A stretch of DNA of 54,909 bases. Source: a virus. Lineage: Duplodnaviria; Caudoviricetes. Positions 1 through 54,909 of the stretch are shown here, in pieces (positions within the stretch are counted from its first letter, which is position 1; the number at the start of each line of letters is the position of its first letter). A model generated the notes under the pieces. The model ran no database searches, was not told the origin of the DNA, and saw only the letters and a list, made by a program, of their open reading frames with translations. Where the stretch lies: the IMG/VR virus record IMGVR_UViG_3300050132_000156, positions 1 to 54,909 of that record. One strand, given 5' to 3'. The translations under genes were made by a program, and so were the position numbers.

Positions 1-181
1 GAATATGGAGACTGCTGCGAGGGACGACTTAATATGGCTGACGTAAGAAGTATTAATAATCACCGCACGCTCGCGCCGGATCAGGCGACGGTGCTGCAGT
101 GCAAGGCTGGCGGCGGGGAGTACACTCCCATCGGCGGTGAAAATGGAAAACAGTGCATGCTGTGCGCGATGGACAAGAAGG
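1..181. repeat. Terminal direct repeat, left copy (circular assembly overlap)
   Basis: Identical to 54729..54909 except position 54 (T) vs 54782 (C). Confidence 0.95.
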
Positions 182-9752: not shown

Positions 9753-10904
9753 ATGGCAGATCCTCTCTTTGACCAGTTGAGCGCCGTAACTTTAAGCGAC
9801 ATGCAGCGCGACGTCCTCGTCGACAACTTCTTCGTCGACGGGGCGTGGCAGCGGCTCACGCGCTACTACGCCGCCGAGCGTCCCTTCACTGGCGGTCTGT
9901 TCATGCAGATCCCGTTTCAGTACGACCGCGTGAACGGCGGTGCCTACACCCCGGGCGCGGACGTCCAGGTCGTCGAGAAGCAGATCATCGGCGCGATGGG
10001 ATTCATGCCCAAGGCATACAAAGAGGACATCGCCCTCAATCTGTTCCAGCTCGGCGTCATCAACAACGGGCCGGCCGCCGCGGTGAGCATCTACGATGCC
10101 TACTACGAGAACGCGACCTCGGCGATGAGCACCGATCTGAACATCGACGCCTATCAGCACGGCCAGCCCAATTCCTCGACGGTACTGCAGAACCGCACGC
10201 CGTTTATGGACGGCATGGACGAAGCCTGCAACGACGGCGTGAATCCGGGCTTCATGGGCAACGTCTACCCGCTCTACGGCGGGAACACCCGCAACGGCGT
10301 GGTGGGCAACACGCTGAACTCCGTGCCGCTGTGGGCCGGCGACCAGAACGGCAACCCCGGCCAGGTGACTTACTCGCTGCTGTTCGGCGCCTACCTGAAC
10401 TGCGTGCGCCCGCCGGACACCGGGCTGTGCAACAAGGCCTGCTTCCAGTACATCGGCGCGCGCAACGAGCCCAAGCAGATCTTCGCACAGGAAACCGACG
10501 TCCGCATCGGCCTGACGGGCTTCAAGATCATGGAGGCCTACATCCATGTTGACAAGCTCGCCCCGTCCACCAAATACGGGCAACTCCTGCCCGCCGGCCT
10601 GTCAATGACCACGGGCGTGCAGCCGCCGACGAGTTTCACAACCTCAGCCCTGACCGCCACGCAGAAGGCGATCTCGAACTACCCGGCCTCGACCGCCTGC
10701 AAACCCGGCGAGCCGTTCTGGTGGCTGCGGATGCAGGAGTGGCAGATCCGGCCGACCGACGATCCGGAGTACAACCACAACTTCACTCCGCTGATCCGGT
10801 CGCAGAGTAATCCGGATCTCGTTGTGGCCTTCTATAAACTGGCCCTCAACTATTACACCGAGTCCCCGCGCGACAACGTGGAGATCGTGGGAATCGGTTA
10901 CTGA
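9753..10904 (+). CDS. Major capsid protein
   Basis: 383 aa; follows the scaffold; strongly biased codon use. Confidence 0.75.
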   Translation: MADPLFDQLSAVTLSDMQRDVLVDNFFVDGAWQRLTRYYAAERPFTGGLFMQIPFQYDRVNGGAYTPGADVQVVEKQIIGAMGFMPKAYKEDIALNLFQLGVINNGPAAAVSIYDAYYENATSAMSTDLNIDAYQHGQPNSSTVLQNRTPFMDGMDEACNDGVNPGFMGNVYPLYGGNTRNGVVGNTLNSVPLWAGDQNGNPGQVTYSLLFGAYLNCVRPPDTGLCNKACFQYIGARNEPKQIFAQETDVRIGLTGFKIMEAYIHVDKLAPSTKYGQLLPAGLSMTTGVQPPTSFTTSALTATQKAISNYPASTACKPGEPFWWLRMQEWQIRPTDDPEYNHNFTPLIRSQSNPDLVVAFYKLALNYYTESPRDNVEIVGIGY

Positions 10905-10952: not shown

Positions 10953-11693
10953 ATGGCATCCGGCAGATTCAGTAAGCAGGCTGCTCCGTTTTTCGGACAA
11001 GGCCGCGCGATCAATAACGGCTCTGGCGATTCGGTCGTCGGAGGCTCCCTCACGGGCGCCCCGTCCGGCATCGGCGCTACAGCATGGCAGCAGAACTTGC
11101 CGGGCGACCGCGTGATCTTCTCGCCCTCCGACGCTCTGGCGTACTCGAACAACAGCGTAGGCAATCTCTACACGGGAACCTACCGCTACGTCGGGACGCG
11201 CAACAACTCGACGTCCTCGCCGGTTCTCGGACGCGCGGCGTTCTGGGACTGCACGGCGACCGGGACGGGCAACAACATCAGTTCGGCGGCCTGCGATGCG
11301 CTTTATCAGGTGAACAGCGACGGCAACGCGACGGGCTACACGAACTCCCTGTTCGCCGGCGTCTACATCAACAACATCGCCAAGGGCAACTGGTGGTGGA
11401 TCCAGGAATCTGGCAAGGCAACCTGCCAGTTCCGTGCGGGGATCACCGGCACGGCGGCGATTGGAGCGGGCGTTTACGTCGTCGGCGGCGTGAACAACAA
11501 CAACGCGACCGACAACGGGGCCTTCGATCAGGTTTCCGGAGCGAACATCGGCACAGGCGGCGCCGCCGCGGCGAACTTCTACGCGAGCGTCGAAGCATTG
11601 CTGCTGGCGCATGTCGGGGTGGCCGAGACGCTCCCGGCCAACAACAACCTGGCGCTGGTCGACCTGTTCCCGATGCGATTTTTCCGTTGGTAG
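10953..11693 (+). CDS. Probable capsid decoration/cement protein, Asn/Gly-rich
   Basis: AAGGAG RBS; follows MCP; beta-rich composition. Confidence 0.55.
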   Translation: MASGRFSKQAAPFFGQGRAINNGSGDSVVGGSLTGAPSGIGATAWQQNLPGDRVIFSPSDALAYSNNSVGNLYTGTYRYVGTRNNSTSSPVLGRAAFWDCTATGTGNNISSAACDALYQVNSDGNATGYTNSLFAGVYINNIAKGNWWWIQESGKATCQFRAGITGTAAIGAGVYVVGGVNNNNATDNGAFDQVSGANIGTGGAAAANFYASVEALLLAHVGVAETLPANNNLALVDLFPMRFFRW

Positions 11694-11704
11694 GATTCGA
11701 GACA

Positions 11705-11731
11705 GCCGCCCGCAGGGGCGTGGATTGAAAC
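11705..11731 (+). CRISPR. Solitary type I-C-like CRISPR repeat unit 1
   Basis: GCCGCCC-GCAG-GGGCG-TGGATTGAAAC: stem-loop plus the type I-C 11-nt handle. Confidence 0.7.
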
Positions 11732-11768
11732 GAGACGGATTTCTTCCGAGTCACTTTGCAGCAGCCTT

Positions 11769-11797
11769 GGGGAGTAGGAAACTACTCCCCTCTTTTC
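11769..11797 (+). terminator. Intrinsic terminator of the capsid operon
   Basis: GGGGAGTAG-GAAA-CTACTCCCC followed by TCTTTT. Confidence 0.8.
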
Positions 11798-12072: not shown

Positions 12073-12101
12073 TTGACACCGTAAGCGGAATAGCTTATGA
12101 T
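12073..12101 (+). promoter_or_regulatory. Near-consensus sigma70 promoter for the HTH-HNH-methyltransferase cassette
   Basis: TTGACA, 17 nt, TATGAT; GTG start 7 nt downstream. Confidence 0.75.
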
Positions 12102-12108
12102 CTGAGGT

Positions 12109-12360
12109 GTGGAAAACAAAGAATGGCCCCGTCTACAGACCGCAATCCGGGACTACCGGGCCGTTGGTCTCAACGCCACTACGCTGTTAGAGATCATCAT
12201 ATGCCGACTCGTAAAGATCGTGAGCAATGACGGGCTAAGTGCCACTGCTCGCAGGATCGGCATAAGCGCCCAATACCTCCACGACGTAATCCACCACAAG
12301 CGCCCCGTTTCGGAGAACTTCCTCGACAAGATCGAAGAAACGGCAGGAGACGGGCTGTGA
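12109..12360 (+). CDS. XRE/Cro-like helix-turn-helix protein
   Basis: LSATARRIGISAQYLHDVIHHKRPVS HTH pattern. Confidence 0.75.
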   Translation: MENKEWPRLQTAIRDYRAVGLNATTLLEIIICRLVKIVSNDGLSATARRIGISAQYLHDVIHHKRPVSENFLDKIEETAGDGL

Positions 12361-12797
12361 GTTCAATCCTGGAGAAAATCATGGATAAGGTATCTCCTGA
12401 GCCCAACTCTGGATGTTGGCTGTGGATGGGTGCCCTCGGAAGGGACGGATACGGGCAGACGTCATTCCCCTATTTGTCTAAAAGCAGGAGGGCGCATCGG
12501 ATATCTTGGGAATTGTTCAGGGGGGAAATACCGAAAGGGATGGTCTTGGACCACTTGTGCCGGGTCCACTCTTGCGTAAACCCAGACCACCTACAGGTTG
12601 TTACGTCAGCGGAAAACATAAAGCGTGGATTTCGGGACAGAGCGCACAAGAAGCCGGATTGTTGCACCAAGGGCCATCCGTACGATGCGGAGAACACCTA
12701 CTTCTATGGGATCAAACGGGAGAAGCGAGGATGTAAGGCCTGCCGCAGAAAGAACGTTTCCAATTTCTGGAAAAGGAAGAGAACCGCTAGTGCCTAG
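12357..12797 (+). CDS. HNH homing endonuclease
   Basis: SGCWLWMG...RAHRISWE...LDHLCRVHSCVNPDHL, plus C-terminal CxKGH...CKAC. Confidence 0.88.
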   Translation: MSSILEKIMDKVSPEPNSGCWLWMGALGRDGYGQTSFPYLSKSRRAHRISWELFRGEIPKGMVLDHLCRVHSCVNPDHLQVVTSAENIKRGFRDRAHKKPDCCTKGHPYDAENTYFYGIKREKRGCKACRRKNVSNFWKRKRTASA

Positions 12798-14142
12798 CCT
12801 ATCGAACCGCAAGACCTTTTACACCCTCTCAGTCAACGACTACGAGCCCATGATCCAGGAACTCACGTTCCCGCTCATGGAGCAGTACGCCTTGAAGATC
12901 GGTGCCGACTTCGAGGTTATCGAGGAGCGCGAGTTCCCCTCTTGGCCGGTCCCGGTGGAGAAACTGCAGATCTCCCAAAAGGCAAAGGAAAACAGGGACG
13001 AGTGGAGCATCTATGCCGACGCGGATTGCCTCATCAGCCCGGACATGTTCGACGTAACCGAACATCTCCGCAAGGATACGGTCTGCCAGAACGGGCGGGA
13101 CTTCGCCGGAGTTCGGCTCAACGCGGACAAGTATTTCCGGCGCGACGGCCGCTGGACCGGGTGCTGCGGTTGGTTCACTGTCGCCTCGGACTGGTGTGCC
13201 TCCGACCTCTGGCGCATGCCCGACGACCTCACCCCCGAGCAGGCCATCCGCAACTGCCATAGCACCGTCGCCGAGCGGCTGTCTGGAGTCTGCGATGAAG
13301 GCCACCTCGTTGACGACTATCTCCTCGCCCGCAACATCGCGCGCTTCGGGCTGAAATACAAGACCGTGACCGAGATCTGCGCCGAGATCGGCTGGAAGAC
13401 ACCGGACGGGCGCGGCTTCAACCCGGCGCTGTGGCACATCTACGCCCTGCCGCGGGAAGAGAAGATTCGCCGGATGCTCTCGGTGCTCTACACGGAGCAT
13501 CAGCGGGTCATCCCCGACCCGGAGAATCCAAACAAGCCGCCAGTGGGCTCGGGCTGGGGCCTCATGTCGCACGACCAGGCAGCGGACTACATGGAGCGCT
13601 GGAAGAAGGAGATCTACTTCCCGCCGGCGCCCGAGATCCAGGGCTGGATGACGCACGTGGAACTCGACTGGCTGTTCAAGCAGGCCCGCGCACACCAGCA
13701 GATCGTCGAGATCGGCTCCTGGTTCGGCCGCTCCACGCACGCGCTCTGCACGGCCTGCGACGGCCATGTCTCAGCGGTCGATCACTTCCAGGGCTCACCG
13801 GCGGAACTGGCAGGACCGCATCAGTTCGCCAAGACCGGCGACGTCTTCGCGGAATTCTGGAAGAACTGCGGCGACTTCGACAACATGGAAGCCTTCAAGA
13901 TGCCGAGCGCGGAGGCTGCAGCACAGTTCGGGGACGGCTCGCTCGACATGGTGTTCGTGGACGGGGACCATACCAAGGCAGGCGTCCTGGCCGACCTGAC
14001 GCTGTGGCGGCCCAAGCTGCGCCCGGGCGGGCTGCTGTGCGGCCATGACCGTTACCAGGATGGCGTGCCGGCGGCGCTCACGGAGTTCTTTGGCGAGGCT
14101 CCTGCGGCGGTCGCGGGAAGTATTTGGGCAACGTCTGTATAA
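12790..14142 (+). CDS. Glycosyltransferase-like domain fused to a class I SAM methyltransferase
   Basis: DxD motif YADADCL; C-terminal EIGSWFGRST, AVDHF, DMVFVDGDH, LRPGGLLCGHD; start placed at GTG 12790. Confidence 0.78.
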   Translation: MPSLSNRKTFYTLSVNDYEPMIQELTFPLMEQYALKIGADFEVIEEREFPSWPVPVEKLQISQKAKENRDEWSIYADADCLISPDMFDVTEHLRKDTVCQNGRDFAGVRLNADKYFRRDGRWTGCCGWFTVASDWCASDLWRMPDDLTPEQAIRNCHSTVAERLSGVCDEGHLVDDYLLARNIARFGLKYKTVTEICAEIGWKTPDGRGFNPALWHIYALPREEKIRRMLSVLYTEHQRVIPDPENPNKPPVGSGWGLMSHDQAADYMERWKKEIYFPPAPEIQGWMTHVELDWLFKQARAHQQIVEIGSWFGRSTHALCTACDGHVSAVDHFQGSPAELAGPHQFAKTGDVFAEFWKNCGDFDNMEAFKMPSAEAAAQFGDGSLDMVFVDGDHTKAGVLADLTLWRPKLRPGGLLCGHDRYQDGVPAALTEFFGEAPAAVAGSIWATSV

Positions 14143-14147
14143 TTTTT

Positions 14148-14174
14148 GTCGCCCTTCTGGGCGTGGATTGAAAC
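14148..14174 (+). CRISPR. Solitary type I-C-like CRISPR repeat unit 2
   Basis: GTCGCCC-TTCT-GGGCG-TGGATTGAAAC; differs from unit 1 only at position 2 and in the loop. Confidence 0.7.
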
Positions 14175-36043: not shown

Positions 36044-36214
36044 ATGGGAAGAAAAAAGAAGCCGGACAAAATGCAGGTCGTCTGCACCAAGATGCCGCCG
36101 GGCCTCATCGTAGCGCTCGACCGGCTTGCCCGCAAGCTCAAGGGAACGCGGTCTGTGCTGATCCGGGCCGTGCTGATTGACCACGTGGCGAAGGAGAAGC
36201 AGGTCTATGACTGA
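36044..36214 (+). CDS. Ribbon-helix-helix (CopG/Arc-like) regulator
   Basis: Translated by hand: MGRKKKPDKMQVVCTKMPPGLIVALDRLARKLKGTRSVLIRAVLIDHV; AAGGA RBS; not in the ORF track. Confidence 0.7.
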   Translation: MGRKKKPDKMQVVCTKMPPGLIVALDRLARKLKGTRSVLIRAVLIDHVAKEKQVYD

Positions 36215-37133
36215 GCGCGAGAAGTTCCTGGCCGAGCGGCAGTTGGGCTGCGGCGGCAGTGATGCGGCGAGCCTGTTCAACCTTGGATGGGGCTGCCAGC
36301 GGCGGCTCTGGTACGACAAGACCGCGCAGGAGGTTGACTCGCCACGCAAGCCATCCCCAATCATGGAAATCGGGAACTTGCTAGAACCTCTGTTCGCTCG
36401 GATGTATCACGACGCAACCGGCAGTTTGGTCAGCATGGAGAAGGTCTTCGTCCAGGACAAAGAGGCCCACATCGCGGTCCACATTGACGCCTGGGTGATT
36501 TCTGATCGCGGTAACCGCGGAGTCGCCGAGATCAAAGCATGCGGTCGCGGCGCGTTTTACAAGTACAAACGAGAAGGGCTGCCCGAAGACTACGTGCTGC
36601 AACTTCAGACCGGCATGGGCGTTACGGGCTCTGAATGGGGCGTTTTTATTATTGGCTGTCGGGATAGCGGTGAGATCCTACATTGGGAAGTGGAAGCGCG
36701 AGGGGGTATTTACACCGAGATCCTGGCGGCGGCGGCGGTGTTCTGGAAAGACCTGAAGGCCGAGCAGAACCCCTACGAGCGCCTGGAGCCCGACGACAAG
36801 CGCTGCGCCTCGTGCTCCTACCGAACGACCTGCCAGGGCGAGCACATCTCGCTCGCGGCGGCTGGCCTGACGGCCAAGGACGGCTACGAGATGGATAACT
36901 CGATCCTGCCGCTGCTGATCGAGCGGGCCGAGCGGTCAGCACTGAAGAAAGAAGCCGAGAACCTGTTCGACGAGACGAACGAAGAGATCAAGGCGCGGCT
37001 CGGAGACCGGAAACTGGTCTGCACCGAGCAGGGGCACAAGGTTCAATACTATTCGTTCCACAAGGCCGAGTACGTTGTGAAGGCTCACGACGAAAGGCCG
37101 CTGAGAGTGTACGCACCGAAGGGGGAGAAATGA
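36207..37133 (+). CDS. YqaJ-like (lambda-Exo family) exonuclease
   Basis: RQLGCGGSDAASL, GNLLEP, HIDAW..AEIK, YVLQLQ. Confidence 0.88.
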   Translation: MTEREKFLAERQLGCGGSDAASLFNLGWGCQRRLWYDKTAQEVDSPRKPSPIMEIGNLLEPLFARMYHDATGSLVSMEKVFVQDKEAHIAVHIDAWVISDRGNRGVAEIKACGRGAFYKYKREGLPEDYVLQLQTGMGVTGSEWGVFIIGCRDSGEILHWEVEARGGIYTEILAAAAVFWKDLKAEQNPYERLEPDDKRCASCSYRTTCQGEHISLAAAGLTAKDGYEMDNSILPLLIERAERSALKKEAENLFDETNEEIKARLGDRKLVCTEQGHKVQYYSFHKAEYVVKAHDERPLRVYAPKGEK

Positions 37134-54504: not shown

Positions 54505-54760
54505 GCTCGTAAGCAGGGAAACCCTTGACGCCCGCATCGGTCGGCGTTGGAGAAGATGGGCCTATTTGGGAGACAACTTCAAGGAACGGCACGAAGGTTG
54601 GATGCGCTATATATTACTGCGGGGCGTGACAGTGCGGACGATCCAAATCAACAACTTGGACGATCCTCTGCTGGGCGACTTGGACCGTGAGAGGCTTCTC
54701 TCTGATTATCAGGAGCGGAAGTCTAAGAGAATATGGAGACTGCTGCGAGGGACGACTTAA
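54494..54760 (+). CDS. Hypothetical protein
   Basis: GGAGG RBS; stop abuts the ATG of the gene that wraps to 34..399. Confidence 0.5.
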   Translation: MKSRLVSRETLDARIGRRWRRWAYLGDNFKERHEGWMRYILLRGVTVRTIQINNLDDPLLGDLDRERLLSDYQERKSKRIWRLLRGTT

Positions 54761-54909
54761 TATGGCTGACGTAAGAAGTATCAATAATCACCGCACGCTC
54801 GCGCCGGATCAGGCGACGGTGCTGCAGTGCAAGGCTGGCGGCGGGGAGTACACTCCCATCGGCGGTGAAAATGGAAAACAGTGCATGCTGTGCGCGATGG
54901 ACAAGAAGG
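54729..54909. repeat. Terminal direct repeat, right copy
   Basis: Matches 1..181 at 180/181 positions. Confidence 0.95.

Follow-up and report, generated by a model that had tools for sequence, protein, structure and literature searches.

Two solitary, shortened type I-C CRISPR repeats were identified in the genome of an uncultivated peat phage. They are best explained, with a probability that we put at about 55%, as a pair of Racr-type RNA anti-CRISPRs acting against a type I-C host, the first of which (unit 1) would be a crRNA-sized, non-targeting competitor. The observations behind this reading are the anatomy of the two units, the pattern of their conservation, the existence of a family of such units elsewhere, and their association with cas8c in bacterial genomes.

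The DNA analysed here, referred to below as the window, comprises an entire IMG/VR virus record (54,909 bp, 61% G+C) that is classed as linear and 83% complete. Its ends carry a direct terminal repeat of 181 nt (window 1-181 versus 54729-54909, 99% identity), which terminal redundancy or a circular assembly may explain, and the genome is then perhaps complete. No related DNA was found among reference phages, and in the protein atlas the phage proteins match viral clusters only. The phage occurs in DNA runs from peat and permafrost, and no RNA run is listed as containing its sequence.

Anatomy of the two units

Unit 1 is placed between a gene of the capsid operon and the terminator of that same gene, in the following order:

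10953-11693, plus strand: gene upstream of unit 1 (246 aa), which follows the major capsid gene (9753-10904)
11705-11731, plus strand: unit 1, a solitary shortened type I-C repeat of 27 nt (GCCGCCCGCAGGGGCGTGGATTGAAAC)
11732-11768, plus strand: tail of unit 1, 37 nt (GAGACGGATTTCTTCCGAGTCACTTTGCAGCAGCCTT), called the spacer in the sequence-only reading that preceded this analysis
11769-11797, plus strand: intrinsic terminator closing the capsid/decoration operon, with a GAAA loop on a 9-bp stem and TCTTTTC behind it

The stop codon (TAG) of the upstream ORF occupies 11691-11693 and is separated by 11 nt (11694-11704) from the unit, which is composed of a GC overhang, a 5-bp stem (CGCCC/GGGCG), a GCAG loop and an 11-nt tail of its own (TGGATTGAAAC). 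The 5-bp hairpin is present in both the MFE and the centroid folds, and Cas5c is predicted to cut between 11720 and 11721. The terminator hairpin proper spans 11769-11790, and the terminator scan scored it as the best of the region. The earlier reading had described this layout as a 27-nt hairpin repeat 11 nt after the stop, then 37 nt, then a GAAA terminator, and the sequence agrees with that description base for base.

The second copy, absent from the earlier reading, lies further downstream:

14137-14142, plus strand: perfect TATAAT hexamer, overlapping the TAA stop of the upstream ORF and ending 5 nt upstream of unit 2
14148-14174, plus strand: unit 2, a second solitary shortened type I-C repeat (GTCGCCCTTCTGGGCGTGGATTGAAAC)

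Unit 2 begins 5 nt past the TAA stop of ORF 12625-14142 and has a GT overhang, the same stem as unit 1, a TTCT loop and the same 11-nt tail, with the Cas5c cut predicted between 14163 and 14164. The intergenic region whose 5' end it occupies measures about 245 nt and shows poor coding signal, and the next gene probably starts at ATG 14389, with AAGGAG upstream. No 3' hairpin was found at a distance matching that in unit 1. The TATAAT hexamer is a possible -10 box; a good -35 box is absent and the promoter scan made no call there.

Likeness to type I-C repeats

According to published work on Cas5c (PMC8524198), the canonical I-C repeat is 32 nt long; a 7-bp stem with a 5-nt loop is flanked by overhangs of 2 nt on the 5' side and 11 nt on the 3' side. 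In the same account, processing is impaired by mutations at the stem base, at U22-G23-G24 and in the 3' overhang, is not inhibited by mutations in the loop or the 5' overhang, and yields a mature crRNA of 65 nt. The window units are 5 nt shorter than this canonical form (two stem pairs and one loop base are missing, leaving 5 bp and a 4-nt loop); judged from sequence, they retain all the determinants reported in PMC8524198, namely the 3' overhang, the UGG and the base of the stem (CGC/GCG).

The units were also compared with two genuine arrays, one in a Verrucomicrobia MAG (L013/G006; 32-nt repeat, period 64-67, 4-6 kb from a cas8c gene) and one in L067 (33-nt repeat, period 65-67). The last 12 nt are common to the window units and to the repeats of both arrays, and the L013 repeat additionally matches the preceding 4 nt (its last 16 nt being identical to those of the units) as well as the first 7 nt. 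The 11-nt tail stands directly after the stem in both units and equals the tails of the L013 and L067 array repeats. The 3' tail, the stem base and, for unit 2, the GT overhang are thus identical to those of canonical I-C repeats, whereas the units are 27 nt long and solitary and canonical repeats are 32-33 nt long and arranged in arrays, within which they are mutually identical; the two window copies differ in the loop. The earlier view that unit 1 is type I-C repeat-like is borne out by the ends shared with the L013/G006 array repeat and by the conservation of the positions read by Cas5c. It gained nothing from the comparison with curated repeat models that had been suggested alongside it: Rfam yielded no more than a match to CRISPR-DR9 below threshold (19.1 bits, gathering score 45, E 0.44).

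Two copies, chance and constraint

A search of the window with the pattern CGCCCNNNNGGGCGTGGATTGAAAC (21 specified bases, at most 2 mismatches) gave 2 matches, versus none in 100 dinucleotide-preserving shuffles, and the occurrence of the units is not due to chance. They lie 2443 nt apart with no further copies in the window and no array arrangement, both are intergenic, after stop codons, and both are on the strand of the surrounding genes. Their flanks show no relationship, which fixes the length of the conserved unit at exactly 27 nt. Within it the copies differ at 5 of 27 positions, namely the four loop bases and base 2 of the overhang; by our own arithmetic, five random differences would all land in the six positions of loop and overhang with a chance of 6 in 80730. 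The confinement of the differences to positions that Cas5c does not read suggests selection.

Neighbouring genes

The 246-aa protein encoded upstream of unit 1 is conserved in relatives (55% identity to its homologue in L005) and has no Pfam or PHROG family match; "decoration" is a name given to it by the earlier reading. Downstream of the capsid operon a further transcription block begins:

12073-12101, plus strand: strong sigma-70-like promoter (TTGACA, 17 nt, TATGAT; 11/12)

This promoter heads a block comprising p83, an HNH endonuclease gene and a 505-aa gene, and the block ends at unit 2. In the stretch from the promoter through the HNH endonuclease (window 12073-12797), the latter (phrog_826, 4.6e-48) overlaps the annotated start of the 505-aa ORF, and the 505-aa gene itself (ORF 12625-14142) encodes a Methyltransf_24 domain. 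Both p83 and the HNH gene are missing at this place in relatives. The 83-aa p83, considered as an Aca-like regulator, gave only sub-threshold helix-turn-helix matches (YdaS and HTH_3) and has 2 homologues, and no acr gene is recognisable near the units.

Regarding the rest of the genome, the sequence-only reading had stated that no cas operon is present. For Cas5d this holds, as Cas_Cas5d (PF09704) has no match anywhere in the 54.9-kb record; the check covered that part of an operon. An ORF at window 36177-37133 resembles RecE-like and Cas4-domain exonucleases (phrog_434, 1.1e-31; phrog_1990, 8.3e-17) and sits in the replication module, alongside helicase and primase genes. The 28 ORFs scanned did not include an integrase.

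Relatives and the origin of the tail

Relatives were represented by 34 loci with capsid proteins 55-75% identical to that of the phage, of which L005 and L020 represent one contig, and L018 differs little from L019. None of the DNA fetched for these 34 loci contains an I-C-like unit; in particular, a unit is present in none of the 14 relatives that cover the unit 1 site (the gap after the decoration-like gene) and in none of the 3 that cover the unit 2 site (the end of the 505-aa gene). The conservation in related phages that the earlier reading had named as a mark of function was therefore not found, and the absence indicates that the units are a recent and dispensable trait.

In populations from peat and permafrost, the region of unit 1 is free of differences in contigs of three runs (X4, X5 and X8, of which X4 shares its study with a possible source run), and a 151-nt contig of X5, covering the coding stretch just upstream of unit 1, carries 21 differences. 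One contig of X8 diverges from the window after position 14133, just ahead of unit 2.

These findings bear on the possibility that the units have no anti-CRISPR role at all and are recombination scars from a host array, CRISPR-array attachment sites, or hairpins that stabilise or process mRNA ends. The units are missing from all relatives and both lie at mosaic junctions, with a variant departing at 14133 and a gene content after the 505-aa gene that differs from that of the relatives, all of which speaks for this view; moreover, hairpins at operon ends can stabilise mRNA. A scar, however, would be expected to be a canonical 32-nt repeat decaying at random, whereas both copies are shortened alike and keep every base relevant to Cas5c, and attachment sites fit poorly with a genome in which the 28 ORFs scanned include no integrase and neither unit adjoins one. 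We consider it rather unlikely that the units are without such a role. A further idea is that the phage may use the host Cas5c for processing of its own mRNA, which would give defined, hairpin-capped 3' ends to two transcripts.

The gap after the decoration-like gene is variable among relatives, containing a tRNA, extra small genes or a terminator alone, and in several relatives the terminator is preceded by a CU-rich motif. Pairwise local alignments, each with 1000 shuffles, were used to compare the tail of unit 1 with the 3'UTRs of relatives. Positions 9-27 of the tail match the pre-terminator 3'UTR of L018/L019 at 18 of 21 positions, a score reached by 11 of 1000 shuffles, and the score against the L040 3'UTR was reached by 38 of 1000; comparisons with L045, L044, L023 and L037 were not significant. 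This suggests that unit 1 was inserted into an existing 3'UTR, in which case the "spacer" and the "3' handle" would be older than the unit. Because the tail resembles the 3'UTR of relatives without a unit and the terminator stands at its ancestral place, the tail looks inherited rather than shaped by selection for guiding.

With the sequence TTCCTCCG or TTCTTCCG, the CU-rich motif resembles an anti-Shine-Dalgarno sequence, and it sits shortly before the terminator of the capsid operon. Its positions are as follows:

CU-rich motif: window 11739-11750; L018:6922-6945; L040:1195-1215; L045:8632-8645

Search for a target

The sequence-only reading had allowed that unit 1 could be a real guide. A blastn search with the 37-nt tail against 50,697 phage records returned only chance matches (17-22 nt, E values from 2 upwards), viral contigs contained no exact match to the initial 22 nt of one or the other tail, and the 37-nt tail has no match elsewhere in the window. 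Without a protospacer among these sequences, and with a tail of which positions 9-27 resemble the 3'UTR of relatives without the unit and which is followed by an ancestral terminator, that option finds no support.

One form of it is a mini-array, in which the unit would yield a true crRNA directing the host Cascade-Cas3 against a rival phage or plasmid. Virus-borne mini-arrays are known in virus-virus conflicts, and a mini-CRISPR array has its spacer between two repeats, matching a related mobile element. No second repeat follows the tail of unit 1, and neither the reference phages (chance matches only), nor the viral contigs (scanned for exact matches of the first 22 nt), nor the window itself offered a target. 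A mini-array guide is thus very improbable.

Another form is a guide-bearing regulatory mimic of the Cracr or crlRNA kind. Through some 10 or more of their PAM-proximal bases, unit 1 and perhaps also unit 2 would pair by way of their tails with a promoter of the host, and the hijacked Cascade would silence cas genes, the CreT toxin or a CRISPR-supervised defence system. Several known systems have a comparable layout. CracrVA1 is described as a single repeat-like unit with a spacer-like stretch and a terminator hairpin, as is unit 1; type I-C Cracr arrays are reported to exist; and host type I-C crlRNAs (bioRxiv 10.1101/2024.12.27.630466) are reported to have the same arrangement with an 11-nt handle and a 3' hairpin end. 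Among the matches listed in the family search below, 5 of 17 terminator-bearing members have pre-terminator tails of 33-43 nt. The inherited look of the tail (positions 9-27 and the ancestral terminator) speaks against a selected guide, as do the tails of unit 1, unit 2, L003 and L004, which have nothing in common, and unit 2, which lacks a 3' hairpin at the matching distance. We regard a guide of this kind as unlikely.

A family of solitary units in viruses and bacteria

The 27-nt unit, with other loops, occurs as a solitary element in two unrelated viral contigs. In one of them (L004/L177) a promoter (TTGACA..TATAGT) stands upstream and a tail of about 33-35 nt is followed by a strong terminator; this unit has the appearance of a stand-alone small-RNA gene and is arranged like unit 1. 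The recurrence of the shortened form behind a promoter in an unrelated virus argues against the view that the units have no role. In the other contig (L003:2880-2950, minus strand) an I-C-like unit is followed, after 15 nt, by a different hairpin unit, consisting of a 7-bp stem and then GATGAACCG, which presumably resembles type I-E repeats and for which Rfam made no call. The L003 pair may be a two-type decoy RNA.

A search of 185,579 species genomes gave 13 matches in 12 loci, with no regular arrays of identical 27-nt repeats. Cas8c (TIGR01863) was present above the curated cut-off in 7 of the 10 bacterial genomes carrying a unit, as compared with 32 of 301 in an even sample of one phylum, a background to be read with the fact that the 10 genomes belong to several phyla and are not all independent. 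In a set of 19 distinct units the stem base and the tail are invariant, and variation is limited to the overhang and to the loop, which changes freely (by our own count, UNCG-type or GNRA-type loops occur in 9 of the 19); the pairing found in 100% of these units arises by construction, since the selection filter required it.

A wider scan with GCGTGGATTGAAAC revealed at least 118 viral loci, with 21 duplicates removed before sorting. Among the matches listed, 69 are array repeats and one lies at a contig edge, 57 are solitary units with a hairpin against the handle, and 46 are solitary without a hairpin, 37 of the latter inside long ORFs. Hairpin sizes among the matches listed have two modes, at 19 nt (at least 21 units, the canonical size) and at 14 nt (at least 10 units). 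A terminator within 150 nt downstream was found, again among the matches listed, for 17 of 59 solitary hairpin-bearing I-C units versus 3 of 45 hairpin-less ones. The distances from unit to terminator in these 17 matches are 17, 17, 25, 27, 33, 37, 38, 39, 43, 50, 51, 66, 66, 67, 75, 91 and 121 nt, and so a tail of crRNA-like length is common but not the rule in the family. At least four contigs carry two dispersed solitary units, which means that the two-copy arrangement is not unique to this phage.

Several further arrangements of I-C-like units were observed. The Verrucomicrobia MAG mentioned above contains, by cas8c, a 32-nt I-C array broken by an insert of about 1.5 kb (L013:2400-3900), which is made up of about 28 shorter, mutually different repeat-like units that keep the 11-nt tail, vary in stems and loops, and recur with periods of 50-62 nt. 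A Ruminococcus MAG contig (L007, 666-3976), from a genome with Cas8c, holds four I-C-like units on one strand, 400-1100 nt apart and different in stems and loops, a dispersed pattern as in the window. In L057 (5050-5220) two I-C-like units lie 84 nt apart with different loops and clearly related tails, as described for Cracr arrays.

In addition, genomes of Thiothrix, Thiofilum and Rhodoferax each carry several copies of a conserved element of about 100 nt with three hairpins, which ends in the same 27-nt I-C-like unit:

Three-hairpin element: L009:2818-2930; L010:2895-3007; L011:883-995; L015:2644-2756; L016:4540-4637; L017:2892-2995

Changes between copies preserve pairing in hairpins 1 and 2, Cas8c was found in 3 of 4 of the genomes, and no Rfam family covers the element.

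Proposed action and comparison with known systems

From these features we infer the following course of events for the decoy reading. Both units would be transcribed within phage mRNAs, unit 1 in the 3'UTR of the capsid operon and unit 2 behind the 505-aa gene. Guided by the 11-nt tail, the UGG and the base of the stem, the Cas5c of a type I-C host would cut after G11720 and G14163 and remain on the new 5' handle, and Cas8c and Cas7 would next assemble on the tail. The product of unit 1 would be about 70 nt long (a handle of 11, a tail of 37 and a hairpin of 22 making 70), near the 65-nt I-C crRNA, with the terminator hairpin serving as the 3' hairpin of the released RNA. Such an RNA would be an abundant, non-targeting competitor that could soak up a full set of Cascade subunits and in this way inhibit immunity. 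The earlier description of a "complete crRNA mimic" holds in part: the 70-nt geometry fits and recurs in L004, and the hairpin is 5 nt shorter than the canonical one.

The closest precedent is RacrIC1 (PMC10651486), an inhibitor of type I-C immunity that stands 11 nt behind a gene and is transcribed together with it; in that study interference was also reduced by a non-targeting crRNA. The Racrs, RacrIC1 included, share with the window units the form of a solitary viral repeat look-alike, intergenic and with no neighbouring repeat, and the action proposed for the window units, competition for Cas proteins, is that of Racrs. RacrIC1 and unit 1 are furthermore both of type I-C and both 11 nt past a gene stop, co-transcription of unit 1 being presumed. 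Unlike the case of RacrIC1 (PMC10651486), this phage has two dispersed copies with different loops, located in the case of unit 1 in the 3'UTR of a structural operon, and no recognisable acr gene. The hairpin shortened to 5 bp and a tetraloop may also set the window units apart.

A Cracr combines a repeat-like unit, a spacer-like stretch and a terminator or a second repeat-like unit, a layout seen in unit 1 only, and is recognised by a match of 9 or more PAM-proximal bases to a host promoter, be it that of cas genes, of creT or of a defence system. Unlike Cracrs, which are defined by such a partial match to a host cas or creT promoter, unit 1 has a tail that looks partly inherited from an older 3'UTR. 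Host I-C crlRNAs (bioRxiv 10.1101/2024.12.27.630466) resemble the predicted products of the window units in the Cas5c cut 3' of the hairpin, the 11-nt handle, the short guide and the 3' hairpin. They are reported there to lie inside cas operons, to be 48-50 or 57 nt long and to have established promoter targets, whereas the window units are viral and the predicted RNA is about 59-70 nt.

The precedent of RacrIC1 and the recurrence of a unit with a 33-37-nt tail and a terminator behind its own promoter in the unrelated virus L004 point towards decoys. Several features point the other way. A position in the 3'UTR of the capsid operon implies late expression, which is ill-timed for the protection of incoming DNA; the hairpin has only 5 bp and 4 nt, the Rfam score is far below threshold, relatives are without the units and no acr gene lies nearby; and tail lengths in the family range from 17 to 121 nt among the matches listed.

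A bolder version would have the 27-nt form be a distinct, virus-adapted "minimal I-C repeat" that spreads between unrelated phages. Here it would make a crRNA-sized RNA out of the 3'UTR of the capsid mRNA, with the tail of unit 1 as a working guide that steers the host Cascade to silence a host defence promoter; the result would be a type I-C Cracr made from one repeat and a borrowed terminator. We hold this to be unlikely.

Implications

The Racr and Cracr concepts, type I-C included, have already been published, and the gain from the present case is therefore incremental. Its additions are modest: a second copy in the same genome, a 27-nt form that recurs in unrelated viruses, and a variation that mirrors the specificity of Cas5c. 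This natural variation marks the positions that would be essential to a decoy (the stem base and the handle) as opposed to those that can be trimmed (the upper stem and the loop), a pattern that may be useful for the design of small I-C inhibitors or of Cas5c processing tags. The units also predict a type I-C system in the host of this phage. Should they prove active, the range of RNA anti-CRISPRs directed at type I-C systems would come to include uncultivated phages of peat and permafrost.
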